64,000 nucleotides of DNA from Candidatus Falkowbacteria bacterium RIFOXYD12_FULL_34_57. GTDB taxonomy: Bacteria; Patescibacteriota; Patescibacteriia; Patescibacteriales; UBA12075. The notes beneath the pieces are model-generated. The model did not search any database. It saw only the letters and a list, made by a program, of their open reading frames with translations, and was not told the origin of the DNA. Both the position numbers and the translations under genes were made by a program. Shown piece by piece: positions 3,399-39,850 of this stretch (position 1 is the stretch's first letter; each line of letters begins with the position of its first letter). The stretch is from the NCBI GenBank assembly GCA_001780285.1, contig MFGN01000005.1, positions 10,200 through 74,199 of the forward strand, read 5' to 3'.

Positions 3399-4853
3399 AT
3401 GTTAAATTTATACAAAACAATAAAATACGGTTTATGTCTCTTAGTCTTTTTATTGCCCTTGCAGACGCGTTATTTTTTGCGTGAATTTACTTTGGGCGAA
3501 TGGTCTTATGAATATGGCAATATCTCTGTATATGCAACCGATGTTTTGTTGATTTTATTGATTCTTTTCTTTTTAATTTTAAAAATTAAAACATTAAAGG
3601 ATTCAGAATTGATTCAAAATTCAAAATTCAAAATTCAAAATTTAAAAAATACTTGGTTCATAATTGCTATTTTGGAATTTTCAATTTTTATTTCCATTTT
3701 TGTGTCCATAGACAAATGGGCGGCAATTTATGGCTATTTGCGATTTTTGCTGGGACTAGGTTTATTTAGTTTAATAATTTATGCTTCATACAATAAATCA
3801 AAATTGATTTGGAGTTTTGTGGGCGGAGTATTGGTGCAGACCGGTTTAGGAATTTGGCAATTTCTATCGCAAACCACTTTTGCGTCAAAATGGCTGGGAA
3901 TGGCAATTCATAATGGAGGCGATTTGGGCGCCTCTATCATTGAAACTTTGAACGGTGAAAGATGGCTTAGGGCTTACGGAGGGTTGGATCATCCGAATAT
4001 TTTGGGAGGGTTTTTAGTTGTTGCTATATTATTGTTAATAGGTTTATATTTGCGTAAAGCGGGTGAACAAGATGATCAAATTACAAATTACAAATTACAA
4101 ATTACAAATAAATTCAAAATTCAAAATTCCCTCCAATTCGGCGGGCAGGCAAAATTCAAAATTCTAGCTTTTTATCTTGTATCTTGTATCTTTTTGATGG
4201 CTTTATTTTTTACTTTCTCCAGAACTGCCTGGGCAGGTCTTATTGTAGGATTAATTGTAATGCTTATTGGGTATTTTCTAAAATTCTCCCTTAAAAAAAG
4301 GGGGGGGATTTTTAATTCCCGAGGGCTTATGTCAATTTTAAAAATTATTACCATATTTGCTTTTCTGGGAATTATCTTAAGCATTGTTTTTTCTAATTTA
4401 CTTTTAACCCGTTTATCTACAGATACGCGTGCGGAAATTATGTCTGTGAACGAAAGAATGTCTATGTATGAAATATCTAAACGAGTGATAAAAGATAATT
4501 GGTTGTTTGGTACAGGAATCAACAATTACGGCATTACCGCGGAAAAAGAGATCAGGCAAAATGCTCCTTATTATTTTTATCAGCCGGTACATAATGTTTT
4601 TTTGTTAATATGGGCAGAGGTGGGCATCATTGGACTGTTTGCATTCATTTTTTTAATATTTAATACTATATACTTAATACTGCAAAAATTGCGTTCTAAA
4701 GATTATAGAAAAAAACAAAGCATTATTTATAATCTAAGTATTTTAATCTCAGTGTCATTGATGTTTTTACTTGATCATTGGTGGTGGAGTTTGCATTGCG
4801 GCGTATTTTTGTTTTGGTTTGTTCTTGGGGTGTGCATACCCAAAGAAGATTGA
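3399..4853 (+). CDS. O-antigen ligase / O-antigen polymerase (Wzy_C) family membrane protein
   Basis: Polytopic membrane protein. FTFSRTAWAGLIVGL matches the Wzy_C core motif. Contains in-frame heptamer-repeat and 48-nt element insertions (3612-3639, 4080-4164). Confidence 0.7.
   Translation: MLNLYKTIKYGLCLLVFLLPLQTRYFLREFTLGEWSYEYGNISVYATDVLLILLILFFLILKIKTLKDSELIQNSKFKIQNLKNTWFIIAILEFSIFISIFVSIDKWAAIYGYLRFLLGLGLFSLIIYASYNKSKLIWSFVGGVLVQTGLGIWQFLSQTTFASKWLGMAIHNGGDLGASIIETLNGERWLRAYGGLDHPNILGGFLVVAILLLIGLYLRKAGEQDDQITNYKLQITNKFKIQNSLQFGGQAKFKILAFYLVSCIFLMALFFTFSRTAWAGLIVGLIVMLIGYFLKFSLKKRGGIFNSRGLMSILKIITIFAFLGIILSIVFSNLLLTRLSTDTRAEIMSVNERMSMYEISKRVIKDNWLFGTGINNYGITAEKEIRQNAPYYFYQPVHNVFLLIWAEVGIIGLFAFIFLIFNTIYLILQKLRSKDYRKKQSIIYNLSILISVSLMFLLDHWWWSLHCGVFLFWFVLGVCIPKED
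3612..3639 (+). repeat. (ATTCAAA)x4 heptanucleotide tandem repeat inside a CDS
   Basis: Four perfect 7-nt units, translated IQNSKFKIQN. Confidence 0.9.
4080..4107 (+). repeat. (ATTACAA)x4 heptanucleotide tandem repeat inside a CDS
   Basis: Four perfect 7-nt units, translated ITNYKLQITN. Immediately followed by the 48-nt element. Confidence 0.9.
4117..4164 (+). repeat. 48-nt element (heptamer arms + GC-rich core), copy 1, inside the O-antigen-ligase-like CDS
   Basis: aaattcaaaattccctccaattcggcgggcaggcaaaattcaaaattc is identical to 51209-51256. Confidence 0.9.
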
Positions 4854-5365: not shown

Positions 5366-7291
5366 ATGAAAAATAATGCAAAGATAATTTGTTTGTTTGT
5401 TGTATTGTTGTTTGTATTAGTTCTGCCGATAGATGTTTTTGCCGCCATGAAAAGCAGCAGCTATGTGATTTATGACAGCGTGATGCACTCTTTTGATGGG
5501 CCGGTGATATCCGGCGTCGCCCACTCAATATCTGGTACAACAGCAACTATCACTTGGAACACGGATGTGGCCGCGGACAGTTTTGTAATTTATGACACCG
5601 ATAATAGTTTTGCCGCCAGCCGCGAGCAGGGAACAAGCAATAAGAATTATATCAGCCATAGCGTAGCTTTAACAGGACTTAGTGCTAACACAGAGTATTA
5701 TTATAGGGTTCGCTCAGAACGGGTAAACGGCGGAATAACGATCGACAATACTACTTATAATTTTACAACAGGATCTGAACCGGCGGGCGAAGATGAGGAA
5801 CCCGCAACCCCTTCTGGCGGCGGCGGAATATTAATTATTGATAAGACAGATAAAATAGCGCCTGTTATTTCTGATATTTCCGTGGCTGTGGTTTCTCCAA
5901 GTTCAGTTGAAATATCATGGACCACAGATGAAGAAGCAACCAGTTTTGTGGAATACGGCGAGAGTAATATTTACGGACGAACTTTTGGAAAATGGGAATT
6001 GGAGCTTGAGCATGCGGTTATTTTAGACAATTTGGATTCCGACACACTGTATCATTTTCGTGCTTTATCAAGCGATGATTGGGCTAATGTGGGATATTCC
6101 GAAGATCGGATGTTTACTACGCAAAAAGGAGAAGTGCCGCCGGAACAAGAGGTGGAAGCAAAAGAGGATCTTGAACAATCAATTTTATCAAGGGTTTCTC
6201 AGGAAATATTTAATTTTTTTCAAAGGTTGTTCCCGGCAGTATCGTTAAACGAAATCGGGCTTGATCCTTTTACGGATATTAAATCGCTTGATGATTTTTC
6301 CAATTTTGTGCCGGCGCCGATTCTCTCGGGAACACCCGGAGTATCTTTTACGGCTACAGAGGCTACTATTACATGGACTACGGATATAGAGTCCGGTTCG
6401 CAGGTAGCTATTTCTTCGGAAAGCGAATATGATCCGAATTCGGTAAATCCATATAAGCAAATCGTGGGAGATGCGGAAGCTTTGAGCACCGAACATGAAG
6501 TAAGAGTTTATGGACTTAGTCCGGATACTGTTTACCATTTTCAACTTAGAAGCAAGTCGCCCTTCGGGCCAACATCGCGATCCAGAGATTTTGTTTTTAA
6601 AACAAATATTGAAGAACTAGTGATTAGTAGTTTGTTTACGCAGATTATAGACAATGAGACAGCGGTTTTTAAGTGGGTAACAAATAAAGAGGCGGATTCT
6701 TCCGTAAAATATGCGCCTTATCGTGAAAATGTTTTAGCTATAGATATGTCCAAGACAATAAAAGACAATGCTCAGGTTATTATTCATGAAATCAAACTGA
6801 CCGATCTGGAAGCCGGCACTTTTTATGAAGTAGAGATATCCAGTACCGATGCGCTTGGAAACAAAGTGATAGAAACTTTGTCCAGATTTTCAACAGCCGA
6901 AGATGATTTGCCTCCTTCTGTGTCAAATATCAAGGCTGACTCTACTATTTTTGTGGATCGCGGAAACAAGATTCAGACAATTGTTTCATGGATTACCAGC
7001 GAGCCTTCAACATCGCGGGTTTATTATCAGGAAGGAGTGCATGGCGCAGGGATAGAGCTAATTGAGTCTACGATTTTAAATACGAATTATACCAAGGAGC
7101 ATGTAATGGTAATTACTAAATTTAAACCAGGAATAGTATATACTTTTAGGGTGGAATCTATTGATTCCGGGGGAAATGTGGTACTGTCGGATCCGCACAC
7201 CTTTATGACCGCCAAGAAAAAGGAATCAATAATACAGGTGATTATCAGAATATTGGAAGAAACATTCGGATGGTTGAAACAGCTGACATAA
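5366..7291 (+). CDS. Secreted protein with repeated fibronectin-type-III-like domains
   Basis: Signal peptide (MKNNAKIICLFVVLLFVLVLPIDVFA). At least five repeats of the pattern ATITWxTDxxAxSxVxYG ... TxYHFRxxS. Confidence 0.75.
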   Translation: MKNNAKIICLFVVLLFVLVLPIDVFAAMKSSSYVIYDSVMHSFDGPVISGVAHSISGTTATITWNTDVAADSFVIYDTDNSFAASREQGTSNKNYISHSVALTGLSANTEYYYRVRSERVNGGITIDNTTYNFTTGSEPAGEDEEPATPSGGGGILIIDKTDKIAPVISDISVAVVSPSSVEISWTTDEEATSFVEYGESNIYGRTFGKWELELEHAVILDNLDSDTLYHFRALSSDDWANVGYSEDRMFTTQKGEVPPEQEVEAKEDLEQSILSRVSQEIFNFFQRLFPAVSLNEIGLDPFTDIKSLDDFSNFVPAPILSGTPGVSFTATEATITWTTDIESGSQVAISSESEYDPNSVNPYKQIVGDAEALSTEHEVRVYGLSPDTVYHFQLRSKSPFGPTSRSRDFVFKTNIEELVISSLFTQIIDNETAVFKWVTNKEADSSVKYAPYRENVLAIDMSKTIKDNAQVIIHEIKLTDLEAGTFYEVEISSTDALGNKVIETLSRFSTAEDDLPPSVSNIKADSTIFVDRGNKIQTIVSWITSEPSTSRVYYQEGVHGAGIELIESTILNTNYTKEHVMVITKFKPGIVYTFRVESIDSGGNVVLSDPHTFMTAKKKESIIQVIIRILEETFGWLKQLT

Positions 7292-11483: not shown

Positions 11484-14400
11484 ATGAAAGATAAACAAAA
11501 AAAATCACTAAAAATGAAAAGAATATGGTGGACAATTAAATTTGTTTTACCAATGTTTTTGTTAACATTGGTGTTTTTTAGTATAAACGGAGAAAAAGCA
11601 ATTTCGGCTCCGGCTAGGTGGGAAGATGATTTTAACGATTGTCCGCAGCAGGATTTAACTAATTTTCCGGGTCAGAATTGTTTGGCGGGTCAAGGTATTT
11701 GCGGCGTGGACACAACCGGAGTGGATTTAGCTCAATGTTATTCTAAAGCGTCCATGAATTACCCGACCGCATCTACTACTTCCAGCACGGTTTATGCTTC
11801 AGGCGAAGATGGCGGATATGTTGTCAACTGTTATGTAGATATGGATGCCACTGCTCCATATTGCGATAATTCCGGCACTTGGTGGTGTAATAGGGATGCT
11901 ACTTGTAATGCTCAAAATAGAGAAACAGAGTGTATTGGAGGAGGAACAGCTTTTTCCTGTGAAGATTGTTATTCGGGTTATTATGACTGTACCGGGGATG
12001 CAACTTGCGAAATTCGAAGCGGAGTAACAGCTTGTCCTGATGCGCACGGGACTTATAATACTACTTGTGGATGTAATTGCAGCGCTTATTGGTATAATTG
12101 CGATGGCGATGCGACTACTTGTGAATGGGGCGGTACCAATGTGGATAATGAAAATTACCGGTTTACTTCTGCTTGCGCGACTAGTTCTTTCGAGTGCTTG
12201 CCCGGTTATGATGATTGTAATGCTGATTTAAACGAAGCAAATATTAATGCCGACACTACCGATGGTTGTGAAATTGATGAATGGGATACAAATTTCGGCG
12301 CTGCCGGCTTGAACAATAGATATAATGATAGTTGTACAGTAATTTGTGATGCTAATTATTACGATTGCGATGGTTTTGGCGCTACTACCACCAACGGCTG
12401 TGAAGTGCAGAATGCTGCTAGTTGTACTGTCGGGCAATTATCCGGTACCTGGGACGGTCCGAATTGTAATTGTGTCGTGCCAACCAGTTACTTTGAAACC
12501 GGTGTAATGGCTGAGTTTGCGACTACCAGCCCGCTTCTTTGGGGTTATCAATACGGAACAGGACCATTAATGCAGTTTACCAGTTGGGGTGCCAGTTCTA
12601 CTGGTGGAATATTTTATGTAGGCAATGATGGTAAAGTCGGTATTGGCACTAGTTCTCCGGGTTCAATGCTAACCGTTGGTATGGATAGCGGCAATCAATT
12701 TTTAGTTAATTCAACAGGGGTGGTAACTGCCGGTACATGGAATGGCAGTATTATTGATGTGGCATACGGCGGAACCGGAACTTCTACTTTTGAAGCTAAT
12801 TCTTTGCTTTTTGCTTCTTCAGATAATAATATTTCAGAAGTTTTAATTGGTTTGGAGGGATATTCTTTAGCGGTTGTCGGCGGAAAACCAACTTGGGTAG
12901 CGTCTTCTACGGGAGCTGCACATCCGTTACTTTCTGTATCCCATGCTGATACTTCAGAAGAAGCGGTTTTAAGGGGAGCATTGATAGTGGGTCGGCAAAA
13001 TGCCAGTCTGGAATGGGCAAGGCTCACTCTTGGATCTAATGGATATATTCTGTATTCAGACGGAACAGATGCTATCTGGCAGTCATTTGAAAATCTTTGG
13101 GATATAAATATGCTGGCTACAACCAGTATGCCGCATATTACCGATTTAGGAGGGCTTGCTACTGTGGGCACGATTACATCCGGAATTTGGAACGGCAGCA
13201 CAATTGATGTAGCGCACGGCGGCACAGGACTTACCTCTGTTTCCGGCGGATATTTACTTGTGGGCAATAGTGCATCTGCGCTTCAGGCAACTTCCAGTAT
13301 ATTTGTGGCTGATTCGGGGTTCGTCGGAATCGGTACGACTACCCCGCAATATAATACGGTAATTATTGGTACCACTAGTGTGGATACTATTTGTTTAGGT
13401 GGATCATGTATTGCAGATTGGGGCCAGTCCGGCGCTATAGATGGGTCAGGATCAACCAACTATGTTACATATTGGCAGGATGGTAATACTTTAACTTCCG
13501 AAGCTCAGCTTGCAAATACTCGCGGTGGTACAGGTCAGAATTCATCCGGCTGGACGGGAATAGCCGCCATCAACGGCGGCACCTGGAGCGCTTCCACCTC
13601 CATCCAGAATGTCTATATTGCCGACGACCTCACGGTAACCGGAGGAGTAATCGGATCAAATAATATCTCCGGAACATTAACCACCACCAATACATTGACC
13701 ATCGGAGACGACGGGGATAATATCATTATTTCAGCTTCCAACTGGGACGTGAACGCTTCCGGGCAGATTACGGCGGGAACAGACGAGACCATCAACGGCA
13801 TCGATATCAGCGGCGGCGTGATCAGCGACGTTACCGGGCTGACGGTCAACGGCAACATCATCGTATCCGGATTCGTGGACGGCGTGGATATTTCAGCCGC
13901 TTCGTCAACCTGGGACGCAAAACAAGACGCGATTACCGGAGCGGCGACAACAGTGCTCACGTCGGATTTGACGGCGGATCGGGCGTTGATCTCCAACGGA
14001 TCGGGCAAGATCGCGGTATCCGGAACAATATCATCCACCGAACTGGGATATCTGGACAATGTCTCATCAAGCATCCAGACGCAGTTGAACAGTAAGTGGG
14101 ATGAGCTTTCCGACATGGCGCTGACCCAGGGGTATATTTTCGTGGGTGATTCAAATGATGATCCAAAAGCCACTTCATCCATATTTATTACATCAATCGG
14201 CAATGTCGGCATCGGCTCAACTTCCCCGATGTATGATTTCGTAGTTGTCGGCACCTCCAGCGCCGATACTATCTGCCTGGACGGATCCTGCATTTCCAAT
14301 TGGGGCGAATCCGGCGCTATCAGCGGATCCGGAAATACCGGCTATGCCGCATATTGGTCGAACGCAACTACGCTGGCCGGCGAACAATATCTGGCGACAA

Positions 14401-17400
14401 GCAGGGGCGGCACCAATCAGAATTCATCCGGCTGGAACGGCGTTGTAAATGTCGTAGGCGGTACATGGTCAACCATAACAGGAACAGCTAATAACATTAC
14501 CTATTGGTCTGATGCCAATACCATCAAAGCCACAACCAGCATATATTTGGCTGATTCAAGTTTTGTCGGCATCGGCACCAGCTCGCCTATCAACCAGCTG
14601 GATGTCAGAGGCAATTTAGGAGTGCTCAATCAGAACGAACTCAGATTCTATGAGCAGGAAGGCAGCGGGCACAATTATGTCGCTTTCAAAGCGAGCACCA
14701 CATTAGGATCTAATTTTACATGGATACTTCCGACTACTGCCGGAGCGGACGGGGAGGCATTGATGATGGGATCTAACAATAAATTAGAATGGGGTACTCC
14801 TGTTGGTGCCGGAACCAACGAATCAAGCACGGCCGGATATATCACGTATTACAAAACAGGCGGAACTACCGTATCGGGCACCTCCACTATATTTATCGCG
14901 CCTAATGGCTATGTGGGCATCGGATCAGGAACTCCGAATAATTTGTTATCAATAGGTGATAATATAAACATCAATGCGGCCGGTACGATTACCGGCGGCA
15001 CCTGGCAGGGCGCTCCTGTCGGATTAACCTACGGCGGACTTGGAGGCAACTTCAACAGTTCTACCGGATATCTTTATGTTGCCGGCGGTACAACTATAGC
15101 TACATCTACCATTTATATCGGTAATACCGACTTGAATGCCGGCACCGGACTTACATTGTCCGGCAATACCATAAATCTGGATGAATTCACTATGGGCACC
15201 ACCGATACCGACGCGACTTTGGGCTCCATTTTCTTTGCCGGAACTGGAGGCGCGATGCAGCAGGACAACGCCAATCTGTTCTGGGATGATACGAATAACC
15301 GATTGGGAATCGGTTCTTCTTCACCGCAGCAAACATTAACAATTCAGGGTGTAGTCGGGCAGGGTATATTGAATATCGCCTCTTCGACAGGTGAATCTAT
15401 ATTTTTTGTTAATGAATATGATAATATCGGTATTGGTACTATTAGCCCTAGTGAAAAATTGGTGTTAAATAACGGTAATTTTTTACAAACCGAAGGAACT
15501 CCTATTAAATTGGGCGGTGTAAATTTAGGTGATGATGGTAGGGGGTTGTGGATAAAGGATAATTATGCTTATGTGGTTTCTGCTAATTATTTAAGTGTGG
15601 TCGATATTACTAATCCAAGTCATCCGATCTTTATAGCTAGCACCACTATCGGAACCGGAGTTAGTGCTTATGGTATTAGAATATCTGGTACTTATGCTTA
15701 TGTAGTTGGTGGTTCAGCTTCAGATGATGATGTTCATATTTTTGATATATCAGATCCTTATAACCCTAGTGATGTGGGTGGAATTGAGCTTGGTGCTACA
15801 AATGTCGGTGGTATTTATATTTCTGGTAAGTATTTGTATCTTGGTTCGCTTAAAACAGGAGGTTTTGAAATATACGATATATCAGATCCGTTAAACGCAG
15901 TAAGACTTGGAGGTACTTCGGTAACCGCAAATGATGCTATCAAATCTATCTGGGTAGTCAATAACAAAGCTTATGTAGTTTCTAATTCCAATTCTTATAA
16001 TTTAGAGGTATTTAATGTTTCTGACCCAACTAATCCAACTTTATTAGATGGGTTAAATACTAGTAGTGGTAATGGAGCTGATATATATGTTTCTGGTCGG
16101 TATGCTTATTTTGGTACAGAAAGTACTGGAAATGATTTTCATATTATTGATATTTCGAGTTCAACTAACATGACTGTGGTTAGTGAGTTAAATACCACCG
16201 GATCAATCAGGGGAATATGGGTGGCCGGTAATTATGCTTATACATCGTTATCAACCGGAGGTAATAAGGTTGAAATATTTGATATAGCAAGTTCAACCAA
16301 TCCATCCAGTATTGGTTCACTTGCTACAGCTGATTATGCCTGGGATATTGTTGTTAATGGTAAATATGCTTATGTTGTTTCAGGACCTATTGGAGATGAT
16401 TTAGAAATATTTGATATTACAGGCATCAGCGCTCCGGCTGCTAACATTGGTAATATTGCTACTAATTATATTAATGTTTCAGAAAATGCCTATATTGATA
16501 ATAATCTTTATATTGGTAATGGTCTTAATGTTGGTGTGGGTGGTATAAAATCCGATGGTAGTTTTTCAGCTTATGGCGACGGTTACTTTGGCGGCAACTT
16601 AACAGTTGGTACAACTACTTTTGGCGCAATGCTTACTGTCGGGGCTACCAGCTCCAGTCAATTTTTAGTTGACAGCAATGGTCGTATTACAGACGGTACC
16701 TGGCAGGGCGACGCAGTTGGTCTTACCTATGGCGGATTGGGCGGGAATTTCAATTCCGCAACCGGTTTCTTCTACGTCTCCGGCGGAGTGGTTGTGGCTT
16801 CATCTACCATTTATATCGGTAATACCGACTTGAATGCCGGCACCGGACTTACATTGTCCGGCAATACCATAAATCTGGATGAATTCACCATGGGCACGAC
16901 CGATACCGACGCGACTTTGGGCTCCATCTTCTTTGCCGGAACTGGAGGCGCGATGCAGCAGGACAACGCCAATCTGTTCTGGGATGATACGAACAACCGA
17001 TTGGGAATCGGCACTACTACTCCTTTTTATACTTTAACGGTTGAAGGCACAGTCGGAAATGGTATTTTGAATATTGCCAGTTCATCCGGCAACTCTTATG
17101 TGCAGATAGATAAAAATGGTTTAACTACTTTTACCGGTGGGGTTATTAATCCTCGTCGAGTTGGATATATACAGTCTTCTAATATTGATAATGCTAATGG
17201 TATTTATGTAGTTAAAGATTATGCTTATGTTAGTGGTAAGAGTGGCATTTCAATATTTAACGTAGCCTCATCGTCAAATCCAATATTTATAGCTTCTACT
17301 TCTCAAACATGGTCTACAATATCTTCACCGCGCAAACCTGTTGTGGTTGGTAATTATGCTTATTTGCCTAGTGACGGAGTAACCACCGGTGCGGTTTCTA

Positions 17401-20400
17401 TATTTGAAGTTTCAAATCCGGCTGCGCCAATGCTTGTGGGAAGATATCCTGATTATGTTACGGGAGCTACCAGTATGATAGCTGGCGCAAAAGGTATTGC
17501 TATTTCCGGAAAATATCTTTATGTGGTTGCTGCCGGTCGCGATACTTTTGCCGCTCTTGATATCTCAGATCCTTCAGATCCCAAAATGATATCAGAATAT
17601 AGAACCAATATAGGCGATCCACAGAATGTAATAGTGGATGGAAGCCATGCTTATATTGCTAATTGTAATGCTAACGCGCTTACTATTATGGATATTTCTG
17701 ATCCATTCAATTTAGTTCGTGATGCGCATCTTGTTGATGCTACCAGGCTCGATTGTCTTAATGGAATTGATAAAAAAGGAAATTATATTTATGGATCAGT
17801 TTGGGATACCGGAAGATTTACGGTAATAGACGTATCAAATCCTAAAAATCCATATATAGCCACATCCACAACTGGTCCTACGGGAACAGAGTTTACAAAC
17901 GGAAATGATGTAGTGGTTGAAGGAGATTATGCATATGTAATAGCTTCTAATAAAATAGTAATTATGAATATTAAAGATCCGATTAATCCACGATATATAA
18001 CTGAGATTGGCATTGTTTCAGCAGAAATATTTTTGAGCGGACGTTATCTTTATGCCGTTAGCGGTTCTGATGATTCATTATCGATTTATGATATTGGAGC
18101 ATTAGAAGTGAGTAATATGTATGCAGGAACAATAAATGTTGATACTCTTCATGTGGCTAGTGATGCGATTATCAACACAGATCTTTATGTAATGGGCGGT
18201 CTCAATCTTGGTGAAAATGGTTTATTGTCTCAGGGAGATAGCGCTTTTATTAAACTTGCCACATCAAGTGATACTAATAGTCCGGTTCTTTCCGCAAATA
18301 TTATCGATCTTAATTCTTCCAGTATTTCAAATATATTTAAAATTACTCATATGAGCAATTCGGTTGCTGAAAATGGAATTGGATCGGGATTATTATTTGA
18401 AAGTGAATTTATTAATGCTCACGGTACAGCAACATCAAGCGCCACATCTACTGCTCAAATCGCCTCTTTATTAATAGATGCTTCATATGCTTCACCGGCA
18501 TCAGCGCTTACTTTTTCTACTAAAAATAATTCATCAAATCTTACTGAATGGATGCGTTTAAATGAAAATGGTTATTTGGGAATCGGCACTACAACACCAG
18601 ATGCTAAATTGACGGTTTGGGGCGCTTCTAATGGGAATAATGCTTTAGTAAATTATTATAATTCAGATGCAAGCAATTTATTTACAATTTTAGAAAATGG
18701 CAATGTCGGCATCGGCTCATCTACCCCAAACAGCCTGCTTTCAATTGGCGATAATATTAATATCAATGCCTCAGGCGTAATTACCGGCGGCACCTGGCAG
18801 GGCGCTCCTGTCGGATTAACCTATGGCGGACTTGGAGGCAACTTCAACAGTTCTACCGGATATCTTTATGTTGCCGGCGGTACAACTATAGCTACATCTA
18901 CCATTTATATCGGTAATACCGACTTGAATGCCGGCACCGGACTTACATTGTCCGGCAATACCATAAATCTGGATGAATTCACTATGGGCACCACCGATAC
19001 CGACGCGACTTTGGGCTCCATTTTCTTTGCCGGAACTGGAGGCGCGATGCAGCAGGACAACGCCAATCTGTTCTGGGATGATACGAATAACAGGCTTGGA
19101 ATAGGGACATCTACCCCCGCTTATCAATTTACCTTATTTAATGATGATTTGAATGATTATTTAGCTTATATTTATAATGCTTCTTCTACGGCCAGCTTGG
19201 GCGGAGGTTTAAAGATTCGCGTTGATGGTGACGGTGAGATTTTGAATTTAAATCACAATGGATCTGATATGGTAACCGTGACCGGTGCGCAGACTACTTT
19301 TAATAATCCGGTTAACTTTACCTCTATCGGAGATGTTACACTCGCTTACGACCTCATTATGGCCAATGCTTCTGCCGGAAATATTACCTTTGATGGACCG
19401 GGTTATATTAATACTCAATCAGCTTGGCAAGATTTAGATTTAACTTTAAGCGCTGCTAACTTAGGTTATATCATTCTGGATGATCAAACGACTTTAACCG
19501 GCACCTCAACTATTGCTGATACTTTGTATATTAACGCTTATAATGACCGCGTAGGTATCGGCACTTCTTCTCCCATGGCAAAATTTGCGGTAACGGGAGA
19601 CGCTTATATTACCGGTACTACTACTGTAGGTTCTTTGTTTATTGGTGCTACAGAAATTCACCCCGAATGGGATAATGTGATTATTGTTGACGGCACAACC
19701 TACGCGCAAAACAGTACCGGCATCCAAGCCGCTATCAACGCCCTTCCTGCCGGAGGCGGTAAAGTATTTTTACCGGCCGGTACTTACAATATTACTGCCA
19801 CTACCACCATTCCAAGTAATGTTTGGATTGAAGGTGCGGGGGCTTCTTCTACGATTTTAAGACTGGCCAATAATGCTAATTCAACAATTTTCATAAATGC
19901 TGATACTACTAACGGTAATGAATATATTAAGATTTCTAATTTATTTATTGAGGGCAATAAAAACAACAACAGCTTCGGTCATGGATCATATTTTGCCTCA
20001 AGTAGCTATATTACTATTGAGAATGTCACATATAATGATATTGATAATTCTTCCTTGTATTTTATTAATTCTAGTAACAATATACTTAAAGAAATTCGAG
20101 TAATAAATTCTGATAATTATGCGTTAGTGTTCAATAATTCTTCCTATAACTCAGTGCTAGAATCTTACTTTAATGATAATGATAGTTATGCTGTTTTTCT
20201 TACCAATGATTCTATTTACAATTTAATCAGCGATAGTAATTTTATAGATAATAGCCGTCATATTGTACCTCTAACTGGTGATAATTATTACAATACCGTT
20301 ACCGGTAATTACTTCACTGGTGCTAGCAACGGAGGCTTCGACGGTGATTGGGGTTATTCAGTAATTACGAATAACAGATTTATTGAAAATTATCGTTGGG

Positions 20401-23400
20401 CCATTTATTCATCATGGTTCCAACACAATATTGTCGACGGTAACATATTCTTGAATAATGGCAAGGGTGATGGTACTGCCGGCGGACTTCGTATGCCTGG
20501 TGGAAATAATAATGTAGTATCCAATAATATTTTTAGTGATGATGGCGGTACCGCTCCAGCTATTTATATTGCCGCCTCTTCAGAGGGAAATATTTTGTCA
20601 GGTAATAGATATTTAGGCACCACTAATTTTATAACTGACAATAGTGCAAGTACCAGATATCTTGATTCGAACCGTCTAGCTATTAAAACCAGTAAACAAG
20701 AATCCTTTGACATTCTTAATGTTACCGCTTCAACAACCGGTGCCTTGGTTAGTCTCACTCAACAAAGTACTGGTGACATCATGAATATTTTTGATGGTTC
20801 AACCGAAGTATTCACTATTCTGGACGGCGGGAATGTCGGCATCGGCTCATCTACCCCAAACAGCCTGCTTTCAATTGGCGATAATATTAATATCAATGCC
20901 TCCGGCGTAATTACCGGCGGCACCTGGCAAGGCGCTCCTGTGGGACTTACCTATGGCGGACTCGGAGGCAACTTCAACAGTTCTACCGGCTTCTTCTATG
21001 TATCCGGCGGAGTAGTTGTCGCATCATCCACTATCGCGATTACTTCCACCGATCTGCAGGGCGGCACCGGACTTACATTATCCGGCAATACCATGAATCT
21101 GGACGAGTTTACCATGGGCACGACCGATACCGACGCGACTTTGGGCTCCATCTTCTTTGCCGGAACTGGAGGCGTCATGCAACAAGATAATGCGAAATTT
21201 TTCTGGGATGATACGAATAACCGATTGGGAATCGGCACATCCAGCCCGCAGGCCATGCTTGATATATTCGGTACGAACAACGAGCTTCGATTGTCATACG
21301 ACATGGATACCTATGTCAGCTTGTCCGCTAACTTCAGCGGAAACATCCAGATCAGCGGTTCTAATACCGGCGGTTCGCAGGTGGTTATCGGTTCGGGTCT
21401 GGCCGAGGATACTTCTTTGATTTATGACGGCAATGCTTATGATTATTATCTGGGACTGGATGATACGGATGACATTTTTAAACTTGGACTTGGCCAGACT
21501 GTCGGCACCAATGCTTATCTGGCTATGGATATTAACGGAAATATCGGCATCGGCTCCACCACTCCCTCCAAATTATTATCAATTTACAAGGATTCGCCGG
21601 CCGCCAACCAGGTCTTATTGCAGGTTGGCACCAGCGACGACAATAACAGGTTCTCGGTCGATGAGGACGGGGATGTAAGTCTGGACGGCACTTTAACCGC
21701 TTCCAATATCTCTACTACCACTATTCCGAGTTTGACCATTTCCGGCGGAGGAGCCTTCCCGAGCGCGCCGAATGAAGGCCAGGTTTTTTACAGAACGGAT
21801 CAGGACCAGGTTTATGTCTATACCGGATCAAAATGGCAGGCGGACAGGACTACGGCTTCCAAGATAGTGGCGGCCAATGATTCGCCGAACAAGGAAAAGG
21901 CCGACTATGTCTGCGACGGCACGCATGACGAAGCCGAGATCAATCAGGCTATTGCCGCTGCTTATAACAGCGGAACCGGAGGATTGGTTTATTTGATGGA
22001 GGGTACTTATAATGTCGGTACTTCAACTTATGCGACTTATGCGATTCGCATGGCAACCAGCACTACTTTGATGGGCGCCGGAGATGCGACTGTGATTAAA
22101 CTGCAGAGTAATTTTAACTATGACATTCAAATTATCAGGGGAGATATTTTGCAAAGTAATTTTGTGGTTACTAAATTGGCAATTGACGGCAATAGCGCCA
22201 ATCAAAGCGCTTCAAAAAATCATTACGCTGTTTATTTTGACAATGTTTCCACATCCACTCTGGATAATCTTTATATTCATAACATAAAAGGATTAGCTGT
22301 AGGTTTTGAGAATTATTCGCAATATAATAAATTGCAATATTCCAGGATAGCAGCAATAATTGACGGTTTAACAACTGGTAAAGGTGTTAATTTTCAAACA
22401 GGATCTAATGATAATGAAGTTATAAATAATATTATGGACGGTATTTCTGATACGGGCTTATATATTTATTCTCAAAAAAACAGAATAGTTTCGAATGTTA
22501 TTAGAAATGCATCTTTTTATGGTATATCTCTTGGAATGGGCGGTGAATATAACTATATCGCCTCAAACGATATCCATAATTCCTTAATAGCAATCAGCAT
22601 TAATGGCGATAATTCTTATATATCTCAAAACATTATTTCCTCCAGTTCCCTTGGCATTGATTGTACGGGAGCAAATTGTGAAAATATCAAAGTAACAGAT
22701 AATAATCTTTATGGCAATATAGACGCTATAAGTATTACCGGTTTTTTCCAATCTGTTTTCAGCAATAATAACATATTCAATAATGCGCAATACGGCATTT
22801 ATTCTGACGGAGGGATGGCTCGATATAATATGATTAACGGGAATATTTTCAAAGAAAATGGCGGTGATGGCTCGTATTCCGCCATGTATCTTAACGGCAT
22901 GTCTGATAATATTATTTCCAATAATATATTTTCAGACATAAGCGGCACCGGCGACGCCATTGAGATAATCAGCGGTTCGGATAACAATACTTTTATCGGT
23001 AATAATTACCAGGATCATGCAGGCAAAGTCAGCGACGCCGGTACGGGAAATAAATTTATCGAAAATAATCGTTTGACTGTTGATGCCAATGACACAGATT
23101 ACGGCGGAGCTGTAACCGCTTTGACAGTCACCCAGTCCGGCACCGGAGATTTGTTGAATGTTTTTGACGGCGCTAGCGAAGTATTCACCATTCTGGACGG
23201 CGGGAATGTCGGCATAGGTTCATCCAGCCCGATGTATGATTTAACCGTTGGCAATATCTTGTGGGCAGGTAATAATGGCGGAGGCGGCAATAATAAGGTA
23301 AGAATAAACGATCCGTTTAATTATATCGGCATGAATAACGGCAACGCTACATTCGGGATAATCGGCAATAACGGGGGGGGAGTCCCGATTGTGGACATCC

Positions 23401-26400
23401 GCGCTTATCAAGGTGCGACTCCCCAAAGCGTATTTTATATCAATAGCGATGGTAATATAATGATGGGCACCAGCACTTTAGGCACAGGAATGAATATTGC
23501 CTTGGGAAAGAATATTGGTATCACCGGCGTAGACAGATATTTGAATTTTGTCCCGAATGTTTCAGGATTTACCGATGCAACATCTTCTTACGGCTTCCGC
23601 GATTACGGCGGCAATATGCAGGTCAAGAGCTCCGGCGGGCAATGGGTCAATATCCAGGGCGCGTTTACGGCTGGTACGGGCCTGACTTTGACTGGCAGCA
23701 GTTTGAACTTGGATGAGTTCACCATGGGCACGACCGATACCGACGCGACTTTGGGCTCCATTTTCTTTGCCGGAACTGGAGGCGCGATGCAGCAGGACAA
23801 CGCCAATCTGTTCTGGGATGATACGAATAACCGATTGGGCATCGGCACCACCACTCCGGCAACCGCCCTGACTATTCTTTCAACCGGTTCGCAGCTCAGG
23901 CTTGCTTATGACGCCAGCAATTATGTTGATTTTACAGTCGATGCTAACGGAGCCTTAACCCTGGGCTCGGCCACCACCACCATCGGCACCGGAAATGACG
24001 CTTTATTTATTGATGCTAACGGCAATGTGGGAATCGGCACCTCTACACCAATTGAACAGCTTGAATTAACCGGTAATTTAAGGTTGCAAAATACAGCATC
24101 TACTTCCAATGAATTATCAGGAGTCATTTATCTGGGAGATAAGCCGTTCTTGCACAGATTTGGTACGTATAATGTGTTTGCCGGAGGCGCCGGAAACTTT
24201 ACTTTAACAACAGCGGATTCAAATGCTATATTCGGTTGGGATTCGGGTATTTCCCTGACTACCGGTGATTACAATTCAGTGCTTGGAAATAGCGCGCTCA
24301 GAATGAATACATCGGGAGAGGGCAATGTGGCGGTTGGTATAAATTCACTGAGAGAAAATACTACCGGAGGTAATAATGTGGCTATCGGCAGAGTTGCGCT
24401 TCGAAATAATACCACAGGTTCTTCAAATATTGTTCTTGGATACGAAGCGCTTTACAATAGCGCTACCGGTTCAAGCAATGTAATTATCGGACATTCGGCA
24501 GGTTATAGAAATACTAACGCCGACCAAAACACCATAGTAGGTTATCAGGCCGGATATGGCGTTGCCGGGACTTCTAATGATAATAATACTTTATTCGGTT
24601 ATAGATCCGGTTATGGTCTTTCCACCGGATCAAATAATTTATTATTGGGATATGGTGCCGGAGATAATATTACTACCGGAAGCAATAATATTATTATCGG
24701 CTATGATATTAATGCGCCTCAAGCCGCAGGGTCAAGCCAGCTGGATATCGGAGATTTGATATACGGCAACTTGAGCTCAAAATATTTAGGCATCGGCACG
24801 TCTTCGCCGCTAACAACATTAACAGTACAAGGAACAGCCGGCGCTCCTATTATGAACATCGCCTCGTCTACCGGTGAGTCGCTTTTCTACATCGCAAAAA
24901 ACGGAAATATCGGCTTGGGCGATATCAGTCCGGATTATCAATTTACTATTTTTAATGACAATACCAATGATTATCTGGCTTATATCTACAACGCTTCTTC
25001 TACCGCCAGTTCAGGAGGAGGCTTGGATATCCGCGTGGACGGAGACGGCAATATATTGAATCTGAACCACAACGGCACCGATGTTGTAACCATATCCGGA
25101 GCCAATACCATCTTCAATAATCCTGTAACATTCGGTTCGGCCGGCGATGTGAGCGTCGCTTATGACCTGCTCATGACCAATGATACGGCCGGCAATATCC
25201 TCTTTGACGGCCCGGGATATATCCGCACTGATTCATCTTGGGAAAATCTAAGCTTAACCTTATCGGCTGCCAACCTCGGGGATGTGGTTGTGGATGATGC
25301 CATGATAATTACCGGCACTACCACCATTGACGATGTTTTATATGTAAATACTTTTGATAACGCAGTAGGCATCGGCACCTCCAGTCCGAATGCCATGCTG
25401 GCGATATATGATAGCGCCGCCGGCGTTACCGATAATGTCTTCACTGTCGCTACCGGCACCGGCGGATCAATATTCCGAGTCAATGGCTCGGGCCAGGTTT
25501 ATGCCGACGGCAGCTTCAACGGCGGCGGCGCCGACTATGCCGAGTATTTCTATGCATCCGACAAGGATTTGAAATCCGGAGAAGTGGTTTGCATAGATGT
25601 AACCCGTGAAAATACAGTAAAAAGATGCGACAGAGGTTCGGACAGCAATGTGATGGGAATAGTTTCTACCGATCCTTCTATCGTAGGAAATGCACAAGAA
25701 AGCTATATAAACAATGAAAATTATAAGATTATCGGCATGCTCGGGCAGGTTCCGGCCTGCGTCAGCGCCGAGAACGGCGATATCCGACCCGGAGACTCCC
25801 TGACTTCTGCTGAAAACAATAAAGGATGCGTAATGCGCGCCGAAGCCGGAGATCCGACTGTAGGTGTAGCGCTGGAAGCATTCGCTTCAGAAGATACAAG
25901 CAACAAGATACAAGATACAAACAATAATCAAGCAACAAGCACTAATGACCAAATAAACGTAAATGTAGCAAAAGGTGAAATTAAAGTATTGATTTCCCGC
26001 CGCAATAAATCCTTAACCGTAGAAATGGTGGAATCTGCCATTACTGAGCGTATTGCCAATATGGAGATTGAAGATGAAGTGGCTATCATGCTTGAAAATG
26101 CCATTGAGGATTACAATATCGCTTCAGCCACCAGGGCGGTGGTAGATGAGCAGATTGCGATGCTTGATTCTGTTTTAAGCGTAGAAATGAACAATATTAC
26201 AGGAGAGCTGACAATGATGGCGACAGCTATCGATGATTTGAGCTCGAGAGTAAGCATTATAGAAGGCGATATAGATTCGATTCTCGATTCTCAATCTTCG
26301 ATTTTCAGTAAATTATCGATAATCAATGATCAATTATCAAATATCGGTTCCAGTTCCCATGAAGTACAGCCATTCATGGTAACCGCCGACGGAAACATAA

Positions 26401-27503: not shown

Positions 27504-30500
27504 ATGTTTAAAGATAAAATTTTAAATTTTAAGTTTACCCGCCGGATCGGAGGGATTCTGCTTTCTGTGGTTTTAATGATTGTTTTGACCATAGGCGTTT
27601 TTTTATTTTTTAATCAGCCAAAAGCGGCTGAAGCCACTTGGTGGAATGATGCGTGGCAATTCCGCCAATCGATTCAGGTGACGAATAATACCAGTACTGA
27701 AAATAATGTCTATATTTCCGTAACTTTGGACACAGCCACCGCCTCCACCAGCATGCAGGCCGACTGCGGTGATTTTCGTTTCACTCGCGAAAACGGCGAG
27801 GTCTTGCCATACTACATTGTCTCCGGCTGCCGCACGGCGACGAATGTCATCCATATCAATTTCCCGATTTTTGATGCCGGCCAGCAGGCGATTTATTTTT
27901 ACTATGGCAACGCATCAGCCGAGAACGGCTTTGCGGCCAGCGATTTTGCTACCGAAGCCAGCAACTACACGATCGGCGCCATAGGCACTGCCGAAACCGG
28001 TCCCGGCCCGGTCGGCTACTGGAGTTTTGATGAGGGTTACGGAACGGTGGCGCATGATGAATCTGGGCAGGGCAATGACGGTACAATTACCGGGGCAACT
28101 TGGAAAGATGAGAGTGAGTGTGTGGTGGGGGAGTGTTTGGGGTTTGATGGAATAAATGACAAGGTAATGATTTCCGCCACAACTCCAGTTGTGAATACGG
28201 TTGTTTTTTGGGTCAAGGCCACGACTACAACTGCAAGTTTTCTTAAACTAAACGATGTGGCGCGAATATCGGCAAGCAATGGAATTGTCAGCGCATCCGG
28301 CTTTAGTTCCTCGACGATTTATGTCAATGGCACGGTTAAAAGCGATATGACGGCAAATGCTTGGTATATGATCGCGATAACAACCGCTACCGCGATTAAT
28401 GCGACAAGCACGATAATAGGTTTTTCAAACAATCAATATTTTGGCGGCTATATCGACGAAGTAAAAATCTACCCCTACGCCCGCACCGCCGACCAAATCA
28501 AGCAGGATTATGCCGCCGGATTGGCAGGGATGAAGTCCAATACCGGCGTGTCGGCGACATTCGGCTCCGCTTCGGACAAATGGCTCTCGGATGGCTTGGT
28601 GGGGTATTGGAAAATGGATGAAACCGCGACCACGAGCGGGGCAATTGATTCGAGCGGGAATGGGAATGATGGAATATATTATGGAGATGCCAGCACAACC
28701 GCGGGGAAGTTTGGGAATGGGGGAGTGTTTGATGGGTTTGGCGATCATGTTGATTTTTCGCTAAACAACGATATCCGAACAATTTCATTTTGGTTAAAAG
28801 CCGACAATTTAACGAATAATTATTTCTTTTTTTTTCCGTCTTCATTAGATCATGTCGAGATTTCAAACTATCATATAACTACAGGAAATATTAATTCACT
28901 AGTTTATATAGACGGGATAGCCATAACATCAGTGAATGACTATAATTGGCACCATATAGTTATTATTACGGAAACAGCAATAATTGGTAATTCAATGCAT
29001 ATTGGTGATATGCAAGGCCCGCCATATTATATCGGTCAGATCGACGAAGTCCGTATCTATAATCGTGCTTTATCTCCCCGAGAAGTCCGTCATTTATACG
29101 AATGGGCGCCGGGGCCGGTACTTCACTTGAAGATGGATGAGAAGAGCGGGGTAACGGCTCATGATTCTAGTGGGTATGGGAATAATGGAACGCTTATCTA
29201 TATGGCAACTTCCACGAACAGTGGTTGGACTCGCGGGAAATATGGAAGTGCTTTGAATTTTGATGGCGTGGATGATTATGTTAATGCAGACGCCTCTTTG
29301 TATGCCTTTGACGAAAACGACAATTTTACAATATCTGTCTGGGTTAATTTTGATGATATTACAGCTCAAACCGGATTAATTGCTGGTCAAAGTCATAGTT
29401 CTTATAGATTACTACAATCAAATAATCAAATACTTTGGCAATTAGACAGTGGTAATGTTAATTTATATAGCAATAACACTTTTAATACAGGCAAATGGTA
29501 TTATGTTACAGCATTGTATGAAAATAGTAAAACAGTGAGTTTATATATTAATGGCGTTTTGGATAATAGCGTAGTTGATGCCACTCTAGCTTGGACCGGA
29601 TTTTTAACAATGAGAATAGGAAAACCATTTGATGATAATTTTTATTTTAAAGGTATTATTGATGATGTAAAAATCTACAACTACGCCCGTACACAAAAAC
29701 AAATCCTTGAAGACATGTCTGGATCCGCCTCGGGCGGAAATGGCGGCAGGGCGAGTAAATATCCGGTTTTGCATCTTTCTTTTGACGAGGGATATGGCGA
29801 AACCCCGCATGACTCTTCTGTCTATGGGAATGACGGGACGGTTTTTTGTGGGGTTGGAGGAGCTAATACAGCAACCAGCTCTGTATGGAGCAAGAACGGA
29901 AAAATTAATGGAGGAATGGAGTTGGATGGAATAGATGATTATATTGATGCGTCAGATGAAGATTTTTATGATTTTTGGGGTACTGATTCCTTCGCTGTGT
30001 CTGTCTGGGTGAAATATGCCGGCAATGGTGGTTCTAAACCGAATGAAGCTGCGATTATTGAAAAATGGTCCGGAGGATCAGGGGGTTATACCTTTGTTTT
30101 GCGTAATAGGCGTTTTGCCGGTATGCCTGGGCAATTATATTGTAATCGATATGACGGAAGCAATAGTACTCCCGTACGTTCTGAGCAAACTGATTTGAAT
30201 GATAATGAATGGCACCATATTTTATGTGTTCATAATGGAGAAAATAAAACGATGACTATGTATGTTGATGGAGTATTAAGTAGTAGTACGCCATACACTT
30301 CTGCTCTTGGTGACACTACGAATAGTCAACCATGGCACATAGGAAGGCGTGGAGGTACATACAATAATCAATTTGGAGGTCAAGTTGATGAATTAAAAAT
30401 TTGGAATTACGCTTTGAATGAAGACGAAATAAAACAAGAATATAATTCCAGCTCGGCTTTTATAATGGGCGGTATAGATAAATCAGCGAATGATAACGGT

Positions 30501-37817: not shown

Positions 37818-37848
37818 TTCGATTATTTAATAATTTTATTATTTTTTT

Positions 37849-38190
37849 ATGGCAAGATATGATCATTTACCGGTATACAAGGTAAGTTATGAGTTATTAA
37901 TTTTGATATTTCAAATAACAAAAGATTTTTCGCGAGAATACAAATATACGATTGGGCAGGAGTTAAAAAAAGAAGCAACTCTAATGATTACAAATATATA
38001 TCGTGCAAATTCACGAATTGATAAAAAAGAATTAATACAAAAAGCCGGGGAAAATATTGAAGTAATACGTTTGTATTTTCGCCTGCTTAAGGATTTGGAG
38101 CAAATCGGTGTTAAAAAATTGATTTTAGCTAATGAAAGAATAGAATCTATATCAAAACAACTAGGAGCTTGGGCAAGAGCTTTTTCATAA
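37849..38190 (+). CDS. avd: DGR accessory variability determinant (Avd), four-helix-bundle protein
   Basis: 113 aa, located between VR1 and TR. MARYDHLPVYKVSYELLILIFQITKDFSREYKYTIGQELKKEA fits the four-helix-bundle / 23S rRNA-IVS protein family (PF05635) to which Avd belongs. Confidence 0.8.
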   Translation: MARYDHLPVYKVSYELLILIFQITKDFSREYKYTIGQELKKEATLMITNIYRANSRIDKKELIQKAGENIEVIRLYFRLLKDLEQIGVKKLILANERIESISKQLGAWARAFS

Positions 38191-38350
38191 TAAAATAAAC
38201 GGTCAGAATTGTGCTTTTGTATTTTTATGCAAGCACGAGTGAGCCGAAATCAATCCAATGATATGCCGAATTTTGGCAATATCCGGCTGATCGCCGGCTT
38301 TGTGCTTTGGAAAATTCTTGAGTATGAAGAATAAAACGATCATTAAAGCA

Positions 38351-38538
38351 GCAGGTCTTCTCTCCGGCAACCATAATATCAATGGGTCGTTCAACAATCG
38401 TGGCACGAACGGCAACTTTTGGTCGTCATCTGAGAATGGTTCTAATGCTTGGTATCGCAATCTGAATTCGTCTAATGCTGGTGTCAATCGCAATAATGCG
38501 GACAAGGGCAACGGTTTATCGGTGCGATGCCTCAAGGA
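38351..38538 (+). repeat. DGR template repeat (TR), non-coding RNA template
   Basis: Matches VR1 and VR2 except at adenines. In the VR frame it reads AGLLSGNHNINGSFNNRGTNGNFWSSSENGSNAWYRNLNSSNAGVNRNNADKGNGLSVRCLKD, rich in AAC/AAT codons. Confidence 0.95.
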
Positions 38539-38554
38539 CTGGTGCGTTGACATG

Positions 38555-38610: not shown

Positions 38611-39850
<1,240 letters not shown>

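Follow-up and report, generated by a model that had tools for sequence, protein, structure and literature searches.

A 64-kb stretch (39% GC) of contig MFGN01000005.1 from Candidatus Falkowbacteria bacterium RIFOXYD12_FULL_34_57, hereafter the window, carries the same 48-nt sequence, aaattcaaaattccctccaattcggcgggcaggcaaaattcaaaattc, in two unrelated genes, at positions 4117–4164 and 51209–51256, with 48 of 48 nucleotides identical. The discrete unit within this repeat is 21 nt long (CCTCCAATTCGGCGGGCAGGC, with one C ambiguous at the junction), and this unit, referred to here as the core, is probably a non-autonomous insertion module whose family is dispersed at low copy number through many lineages of the Patescibacteria, or Candidate Phyla Radiation (CPR). 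An earlier note, made from the sequence of the window alone, had taken the whole 48 nt as a recently spread miniature insertion element. That the element is inserted was borne out by the 40 closest database homologues of one host protein, which lack it; its extent was not, because the unit is 21 nt rather than 48 nt and the flanking heptamers belong to a host array.

Two identical copies in unrelated genes

Both copies lie within long + strand open reading frames (ORFs), and both host frames are intact. The first host gene (3399–4853, + strand, 484 aa) encodes a Wzy_C/O-antigen-ligase family protein (Pfam Wzy_C; the Wzy-like protein), and the second (50000–51418, + strand, 472 aa) encodes an M16 (pitrilysin-family) peptidase (Pfam Peptidase_M16 and M16_C). 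The core copies themselves are at 4129–4150 (cCCTCCAATTCGGCGGGCAGGc, consisting of the 21-nt module plus the one ambiguous junction C) and at 51221–51242 (the same sequence), both on the + strand, and both were found by the covariance model R1 (38.4 bits and E = 2e−6 for the first copy). Even with three mismatches allowed, the 20-nt core matched the window exactly twice, and there was no match in 100 dinucleotide-preserving shuffles. As the earlier note had read them, the 48 nt are translated in two different frames, giving KFKIQNSLQFGGQAKFKI in the Wzy-like gene and SKFKIPSNSAGRQNSKF in the M16 gene, with the core read as SLQFGGQ and PSNSAGR, respectively.

At site 1, the GC-rich core is preceded by a host array of AAATTCA ×2.9, equivalent to AAAATTC units (4110–4129, + strand), and followed by CAAAATT ×2.1 (4150–4164, + strand); the two arrays keep the same phase on either side of the 21-nt insert. 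At site 2, the left heptamers are aaattc aaaattc (51209–51221, + strand), and the right ones are CAAAATT ×2.3 (51242–51257, + strand). The direct AAAATTC heptamers described in the earlier note are therefore present on both sides, and its account of the frame difference also held: three AAAATTC-type units precede the core at site 1 and two at site 2, and because 7 equals 1 modulo 3, the extra unit shifts the core by one frame (+1) at site 1. We also considered a slippery-heptamer frameshift signal and rejected it, because AAAATTC does not have the form X XXY YYZ and both ORFs are read through in frame.

In the M16 peptidase, the insert occupies a variable hydrophilic linker, about 50 aa before the C-terminus. 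Comparison with uninserted orthologous genes, as the earlier note had proposed, showed that these approximately 19 aa (YKRPSKFKIPSNSAGRQNS) are missing from the 40 nearest homologues in the database; the homologues lack the flanking heptamers as well as the core, whereas an M16 fragment with 99% identity has the same insert. M16 homologues in the PDB have a gap of about 30 aa at the insert, such that query residues 386–422 correspond to residues 384–390 of 1hr6_B.

The Wzy-like family has two length-variable loops, at about aa 70–80 and 225–262, which in many Falkowbacteria homologues contain heptamer-encoded peptides (IQNSKFK, FSIFNFQ, and QITNYKL) together with peptides encoded by repetitive extragenic palindromic (REP) hairpins. 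In the window gene, the second loop is a composite of three arrays: CAAATTA ×4.7 (4077–4109, + strand), which encodes QITNYKLQITN; the AAAATTC array with the core; and, on the other side of the insert, TATCTTG ×2.9 (4173–4192, + strand). The first variable loop of the same gene contains an “empty” AAAATTC-type array without the core (ATTCAAA ×5.1; 3612–3647, + strand). A Wzy variant with 97% identity (P0122), which has lost 75 aa from the heptamer region onward, was considered as an empty site and set aside as uninformative, because the deletion removes part of the Wzy_C domain.

Precise insertion after a C

When the flanks of the genome loci described below were aligned, only c-CCTCCAATTCGGCGGGCAGG-c was common to them; the sequence further out differed in each copy, and no larger sequence context common to the copies was found. 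The base at −1 was C in 53 of 57 cases, that at +1 was C in 52 of 57, and that at +2 was A in 33 of 57. Insertion is directly 3′ of a C, with TC^AA as the preferred context, in one orientation and without target-site duplication.

The core recurs in two contexts, between tandem heptamer units and in the loops of CGTC/TGTC-tagged REP hairpins. We searched the low-GC loci for REP hairpins as exact hairpins of the form AT–6 bp–loop–6 bp–ATGA(C). Among the short loops, TCAAG was the commonest, while the long loops were TC+CCTCC...CAGGC+AAG, AC+core+AAG, or CTTC+core. Five stem variants occurred in empty and filled forms on the same 6-bp stem: CCTGAA, with the empty loop ACAAG and the filled loop AC+core+AAG; CCCGCA, CCCGGA, and CCCGTG, with TCAAG and TC+core+AAG; and TCCCGC, with CTTC and CTTC+core. 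These pairs indicate that a block of exactly 21 nt was gained after a C and that nothing was duplicated. Nine different stems carried the core, which favors repeated insertions over descent from one composite, and with respect to the ATGAC tag and the asymmetry of the loop the core always had one orientation. Miniature inverted-repeat transposable elements have terminal inverted repeats and target-site duplications and measure about 50–500 bp in length; the module, in contrast, is 21 nt, has no terminal inverted repeats, and is without duplication at the REP loops. A short-loop subfamily of 19 nt (CCTCCAGAGGCGGGCAGGC), a length that is not a multiple of three, was observed at the same TC^AAG position of REP loops in L120, L148, and L173 (e.g., L120 positions 5498–5540) and in L048 (positions 6454–6473).

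A strict heptamer context was found at 16 of 130 distinct sites versus 0.2% of random positions, and 30 of the 130 were flanked by a perfect stem of 6 bp or more, versus 2.5% of control positions, with many further stems being imperfect. The heptamers hosting the core included aaaattc, aaagttc, aaagtcc, aaaagtc, aaagatc, tggaaac, and ggttatc, among others, and the heptamer period stayed in phase across the insert, 21 nt being three heptamer periods as well as seven codons.

The 48-nt identity within one genome could instead be the product of homology-driven copying, i.e., template switching or gene conversion between AAAATTC arrays, with the core carried along. The two window copies share a heptamer on each side (13 + 14 nt of flanking identity), homologous arrays were available, as the coreless array at 3612–3647 indicates, and the absence of the heptamers from the M16 homologues means that array and core may have come together. 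However, each AAAATTC unit boundary is itself a TC^AA target, so that two independent insertions would give an identical 48-mer, and outside the shared 48 nt the two sites resemble each other only in “agctt,” offset by 1 nt. Moreover, across genomes the core is found both in REP loops and in arrays built from many different heptamers, sites without shared flanking homology, such that copying cannot be the general mechanism. We consider it unlikely, although not far-fetched, as the source of the window pair, and insertion of the 21-nt module remains our preferred explanation.

Occurrence across CPR genomes and metagenomes

The genome-wide search that the earlier note had suggested returned many further copies. 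A scan of one genome per species for the exact 20-mer gave 78 loci (about 55 of them low-GC), and the low-GC loci came from records titled Kuenen-, Levy-, Magasanik-, Roizman-, Collier-, Berkel-, Andersen-, and Saccharibacteria, WWE3, and “Patescibacteria group”; every low-GC match whose title was informative was a metagenome-assembled genome of the Patescibacteria type. A metagenome scan with the pattern CCNCCAATNCGGNGGGCAGGC, in which three positions are free, added 93 copies on low-GC contigs. In these, position 3 was T in 73, G in 15, and A in 5; loop position 9 was T in 61, A in 16, C in 11, and G in 5; and position 13 was always C. None of the 78 genome matches was a cyanobacterial record, and the exact core was not found in viral contigs, giving no evidence for a phage vector. 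An rRNA or tRNA origin of the core was also considered and rejected, because a conserved cellular RNA gene would yield thousands of genome matches, not 78.

The high-GC matches of both scans (Actinobacteria, Proteobacteria, and others) lie in ordinary coding contexts, several of them in orthologous genes, and were treated as chance or codon-level matches, with the exception of L007 and L028. In these two loci (positions 2766–2785 and 1814–1833, respectively), the exact core lies in the loop of the hairpin ggcgaac...gttcgcc at orthologous sites of two genomes with 53–55% GC (UBP15 UBA6099 and ADurb.Bin236), indicating that the element is not strictly confined to Patescibacteria. Separately, the loci L005, L014, L016, L021, L025, L035, L036, L047, L048, L062, L076, and L077 include low-GC metagenome-assembled genomes (MAGs) labeled “uncultured Gammaproteobacteria.” These MAGs carry the core (at least four copies in one), REP hairpins, and heptamer arrays, and they resemble the Patescibacteria loci; their labels may be wrong.

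The source of the window is itself a MAG, and repeats can mislead assemblers, so that an assembly or chimerism artifact, or a chance repeat, has to be weighed. No match is expected by chance, and both host ORFs are intact and in frame. The Wzy-like protein is 100% identical to an NCBI entry of Candidatus Falkowbacteria bacterium RIFOXYD2_FULL_34_120 and is present in several public sources, on six contigs, and the M16 insert recurs in the fragment with 99% identity. The core itself is present at over 130 distinct sites contributed by many independent projects, and its carriers include a single-cell genome and the closed genome CP066685. An artifact is thus a practically negligible explanation, and both observations that would have spoken against the earlier note, a lack of further copies and a chimeric assembly, are contradicted.

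Reading frames and orientation of the core

The earlier note had described the element as free of stop codons in at least two frames. On direct reading, all six frames of the core proved free of stop codons, and all three sense frames are used; since 21 nt is also seven codons, an in-frame copy leaves the host gene unbroken. Among 132 distinct sites, 68 copies were in the sense orientation within an open span of 150 aa or more, 8 were antisense, and 56 were outside such spans (binomial p = 6e−13). Copies outside ORFs were also co-oriented with the neighboring genes (35:13), and peptide tolerance is therefore not the whole basis of the orientation bias. Selection might favor this orientation because an antisense copy would place GGAGGG, a Shine-Dalgarno-like sequence, inside mRNAs.

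In the window, the module sits in AAAATTC arrays that occupy permissive, length-variable loops of the Wzy-like protein and the M16 peptidase. In our proposed scheme, the module would be tolerated when translated; it would simply be translated, with the number of upstream heptamers probably setting its reading frame.

Hairpin structure and weighing of the evidence

The core can be folded into an imperfect 6-bp stem, CCCTCC/GGCGGG, with a central T·C mismatch and AATTC as its loop; the tail behind the stem reads CAGGC, which is GCCTG on the opposite strand. We built a small covariance model for the core family and recovered variants in 100 loci. In the distinct sequences, the central pair was G:C in 21, U:A in 4, C:G in 3, G:U or U:G in 3, and unpaired in 24, and the most widespread core type is the mismatch type (U·C central pair). 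Imperfect palindromes are also recognized by Y1 transposases, which is a parallel to the mismatched core type. No Rfam family reached the threshold anywhere in the window, and nothing was found at E ≤ 1 around the composite of REP and core in L147. Two further sites in the window are assigned to the family with low confidence: a possible degenerate third copy, CCCTCCGATCCGGCGGGTAAAC (27533–27554, − strand; 19.8 bits, E = 0.027), beside a TTAAAAT heptamer pair and antisense to the N-terminus of the ORF at 27504–32498, and a weak family-like hairpin, TCCGCC..GGCGGA (59588–59609, − strand; 16.4 bits, E = 0.15), an example of nesting in the loop of a REP-like hairpin in a UvrD-like gene.

Several observations weigh against the interpretation of the core as a mobile insertion module. 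The copy number is low, with the exact core at one to six loci per genome among the fetched loci and twice in the 64-kb window, which is unusual for a selfish repeat. The closest full-length M16 homologues have at most 72% identity, and recent activity of the two window copies is unproven. When the core and the 48-mer were folded alone, as RNA or DNA, they were no more stable than shuffled sequences (z = −0.9 to +1.5), and support for the hairpin comes from the variants only; the covariation score was above those of all 500 shuffles and all slid registers, in an alignment that was fitted to the model and leans toward the modeled structure. No mobilizing protein was identified: no neighboring gene recurred, the RAYT-like Y1 transposase gene of the window (described below) has different hairpins on its flanks, and among 145 other loci just two (L035 and L084) had Y1 homologues close to the core. 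The three sense frames are used unequally (PSNSAGR 39, PPIRRAG 16, and LQFGGQ 13; chi-square p = 1e−4), so the copies are not fully neutral. This last point also qualifies the claim of the earlier note that there is no selection at the protein level: it is indeed the nucleotide sequence and not the peptide that is conserved, but the 39:16:13 frame use and the 68:8 excess of sense copies indicate some filtering, at the level of the protein, the mRNA, or the mechanism.

The invariance of the core across phyla could also mean that the 21-mer is a selected functional motif, such as a binding site or an RNA hairpin for a conserved Patescibacteria factor, maintained by purifying selection. The 20–21 nt are identical across phyla, the copies are co-oriented with transcription, compensatory variants support the hairpin, and in Collierbacteria the core lies just upstream of an rpsF-like start. 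At orthologous core sites in two Collierbacteria species (L052 and L070), the left flanks are 55% and the right flanks 88% identical while the core is unchanged, although such pairs were chosen by the exact core and their invariance is thus biased by ascertainment. Against a functional motif, the copies are sporadic (about 40 of the scanned species-representative genomes, one to six loci each) and occupy non-homologous positions, namely unrelated protein loops, REP loops, and intergenic arrays. In addition, there is no Rfam match, and the empty/filled REP pairs represent insertion events and not conserved sites. We therefore consider a selected motif improbable; a module that most likely has no host function, and is selfish or neutral, is the reading we retain. 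The claim that the repeat had spread recently, which the earlier note drew from its perfect identity, does not follow from that identity, since the same 20–21 nt are identical in about 40 genomes of many Patescibacteria phyla and at orthologous sites with diverged flanks. As judged from these sequence comparisons, the identity appears to reflect a cross-phylum invariant family rather than demonstrable recency.

Repeats that host the core

The heptamer arrays are a general feature of the window and of the low-GC loci. In the window, period 7 was represented by four exact arrays of at least three copies, versus zero expected, and periods 5–6 and 8–12 by none; in 945 kb of low-GC loci, there were 33 such arrays of period 7, compared with 1–4 for neighboring periods. 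An array of at least three heptamers exposes every cyclic trinucleotide in every frame, and arrays within ORFs therefore need heptamers that are free of sense-strand stop codons. All in-ORF arrays of at least three units that were checked by direct reading had no sense-strand stop; AAAATTC, for example, is open in sense and has TGA in antisense. The AAAGTTG array at 59493–59511, which contains TGA, has fewer than three units, and its TGA is out of frame.

Hairpins carrying the core are tagged (C/T)GTC [(C/T)GTCAT], have an AT stem foot, a 4–5-nt loop, and a CCA tail, and form head-to-head doublets. In these features, and in occasional intragenic units, they agree with what has been published on CGTC/TGTC-tagged REPs (PMC3733652). 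In L147, for example, one loop of a REP doublet holds the core, and one doublet copy is in frame in a membrane-protein gene.

Repeats of the same kinds occur elsewhere in the window. The M16 gene itself ends in an array of ATTTCCG ×4.6 (51384–51415, + strand), which encodes an aberrant C-terminus, FRFPISDFRF, where homologues have KDxxKFEKLLKI. A UvrD/PD-(D/E)XK helicase-nuclease gene (58936–62301) contains at least five small translated inserts, consisting of heptamer arrays (59493–59511 and 59944–59981) and REP-like hairpins (about 59517–59552, 59584–59620, and 59861–59884). Other arrays are AAGATAC, TCGATTC, AATTATC, and CAAATTC at 25891–26911 in a 5328-aa ORF (11484–27470), GAAAGTC at 48787–48813 in the ORF at 48016–49098, and AGTCAAA at 52634–52666 in a 2106-aa FG-GAP-like ORF (51839–58159). 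Between genes, inverted heptamer arrays at 58837–58916 (GATTTAC ×3.9 and, about 30 nt downstream, the complement-type TTAAATC/GTAAATC ×4) could fold together into a long hairpin, which would lie upstream of the helicase gene.

Possible means of movement

Movement of the module would depend on a trans-acting enzyme that recognizes the hairpin plus tail in single-stranded nucleic acid. Such an enzyme might act on single-stranded DNA, as an HUH/Y1 protein of the IS200/IS605 or REP-associated tyrosine transposase (RAYT) kind, or through RNA and a reverse transcriptase; the orientation bias and the lack of duplication fit either route. The absence of duplication, the single orientation, and recognition of a hairpin would be slightly better explained by the HUH single-strand DNA mechanism. 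Copies truncated at the 5′ end, a signature of target-primed reverse transcription, were sought as well, and no such signature was found; the isolated 3′ halves were mostly short-loop variants (CCTCCAGAGGCGGGCAGGC) and not truncations. When 2219 ORFs taken from low-GC loci were compared all against all with BLAST, no gene recurred beside the core; the families obtained were housekeeping genes and small GIY-YIG, DUF559, and four-helix-bundle genes, which were not positioned beside it.

The window encodes two enzymes that could in principle act in trans, a Y1 transposase and the reverse transcriptase of a retroelement. The RAYT-like Y1 transposase gene (47194–47856) passes the Pfam Y1_Tnp threshold and weakly matches NCBIfam REP_Tyr_transpos. 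It is flanked by the palindrome AAGGACCTTCCGAAGGTCCTT (at 47149 and 47860), a third copy of which lies in frame inside the gene (47389, peptide KDLPKV). The region (47130–47900) has a REPtron-like layout, and no link to the 21-mer was found in it.

A complete diversity-generating retroelement is present at 37626–39850, with a variable region (37626–37821) at the C-terminus of the ORF at 32631–37817, Avd (37849–38190), and a template repeat (38351–38546). The template and variable regions are 93% identical, and 10 of the 13 differences are at template adenines. Its reverse transcriptase is split into two ORFs (38611–39117 and 39167–39850) beside a (GA)14 microsatellite (39086–39114); it may be either a pseudogene with a frameshift or a switch for phase variation. 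The window also has two small four-helix-bundle genes of the 23S rRNA-intervening-sequence protein/bAvd family (51445–51720 and 37849–38190), one of which lies downstream of the terminal heptamer array of the M16 gene, at a distance of 30 nt. Speculatively, this family may be abundant in the phyla for which heptamer arrays are reported, namely cyanobacteria, Bacteroidetes, Beggiatoaceae, and CPR. A cluster at 39837–46784 looks defense- or mobile-element-related, with an AbiEii toxin gene (40486–41208) preceded by a possible antitoxin ORF (39837–40496), and two AAA_14/DUF4143 ATPase genes (41386–42585 and 44431–45552).

Taken further, the 21-mer might be a mobile element that is active, spreads horizontally, and belongs to the smallest size class known; it would be moved by an unrecognized trans machinery of the HUH/Y1 or reverse-transcriptase/Avd type that targets single-stranded TC^AA in REP loops and slipped heptamer arrays, and that may also generate the arrays of Patescibacteria, cyanobacteria, Beggiatoaceae, and Bacteroidetes. 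We offer this only tentatively, as a scenario that is more doubtful than the existence of the module itself.

Comparison with known repeats

By description, the nearest known kind of element is the small dispersed repeat (SDR) family of Nostoc. Elhai et al. (2008) reportedly described SDR1–8 of Nostoc punctiforme and its relatives as 21–27 nt long, associated with heptameric repeats or miniature palindromes, and occurring in nested or tandem copies. These repeats are also said to form a small hairpin with compensatory changes, to encode no protein, and to be confined to a subgroup of cyanobacteria. The 21-nt core is similar in size, likewise lies in heptameric repeats or palindromic elements, is nested, is inserted precisely at a fixed position of a short target, and has no encoded protein or known mobilizing enzyme; we know of no enzyme for the cyanobacterial SDRs either. 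The core differs in being from Patescibacteria and not cyanobacteria and, judged by description, in its sequence; the exact core occurred in no cyanobacterial species representative of the genome scan. It is also of low copy number per genome and yet exact across many phyla, and a large share of its copies are in sense within ORFs. Precise insertion of an SDR into another repeat has been documented for SDR5 inside HIP1 (PMC4390886).

For REPs, the reference systems are the CGTC/TGTC- and GTAG-tagged families and REPINs (Di Nocera et al. 2013, PMC3733652; Bertels and Rainey 2011, PMC3116915); the CGTC REPs have no known dedicated transposase (PMC3733652). REPs are short imperfect palindromes of 20–40 bp overall, with stems of 5–13 bp and a small loop. 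Like these, the core is a short, imperfect, GC-rich palindrome with a conserved terminal tag; its 6-bp stem contains one mismatch, and its loop and tail are 5 nt each. Unlike them, it ends in CAGGC without a GTAG or CGTC tag and lacks the AT stem foot, whereas its carrier hairpins do have (C/T)GTCAT. REPs have tens to thousands of copies per genome, mostly outside genes and often paired as inverted doublets, whereas the exact core is present at one to six loci per genome among the fetched loci with no doublets seen, is nested inside other REPs, and has 68 of 132 sites in long open frames. No flanking RAYT gene was found for the core, whereas the Y1_Tnp gene of the window is flanked by AAGGACCTTCCGAAGGTCCTT.

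The Rickettsia palindromic elements (RPEs), which are about 150 bp, have been called “selfish DNA in protein-coding genes” (PMC10969869). RPEs and the core share in-frame insertion of a palindromic repeat into unrelated housekeeping genes and its translation, apparently at tolerant positions of the protein. RPEs, however, each encode one conserved peptide and belong to one genus, while the 21-nt module is read in three frames (PSNSAGR, PPIRRAG, and LQFGGQ).

For the heptamers, the comparable systems are the cyanobacterial short tandemly repeated repetitive (STRR) arrays, reportedly described by Vioque in 1997, and TAACTGA repeats. The latter are known from Beggiatoaceae, cyanobacteria, and Bacteroidetes (PMC4679880). 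The arrays studied here share with both the excess of period 7, the mixture of heptamers side by side, a patchy cross-phylum distribution, and occurrence inside functional genes, namely in RNase P RNA for cyanobacteria and in protein loops for the arrays studied here. Their units are instead diverse, A-rich, free of sense stop codons, and often in ORFs, whereas TAACTGA contains stop codons and is mostly intergenic.

Members of IS200/IS605 and their miniature derivatives have no terminal inverted repeats, cause no target duplication, use an imperfect hairpin that is recognized and a short specific target, and show strand or orientation bias; they need two different subterminal hairpins, at the left and right ends, and are mobilized by TnpA (Y1). 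The core is similar in lacking terminal inverted repeats and duplication and in its hairpin, short target, and orientation bias. It differs in having a single hairpin within 21 nt, and the search for a linked Y1 transposase gene gave none. Limited searches of the literature found no report of this element, or of heptamer arrays, in Patescibacteria.

Implications for CPR genomes

The movement of 21–27-nt repeats has been a puzzle ever since SDRs were described in cyanobacteria, and there is now an analogous system in Patescibacteria. The empty/filled signature, the target after C (preferring TC^AA), the strict orientation, the invariance across phyla, and genomes of about 1 Mb make the question approachable through comparative genomics and simple biochemistry with single-strand DNA; for a very small dispersed repeat in this lineage, the mechanism may prove tractable. 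If a trans-acting machinery exists, it would be findable by phylogenetic profiling, Patescibacteria genomes being only about 1 Mb. The finding also bears on proteins: odd peptides of Patescibacteria, such as IQNSKFK, PSNSAGRQ, FSIFNFQ, and the “RMT”-type REP translations, are translated repeat DNA in permissive loops and not functional motifs. Such translated repeats affect annotation, alignment, and structure prediction in Patescibacteria, and they represent one route by which protein loops gain new sequence.

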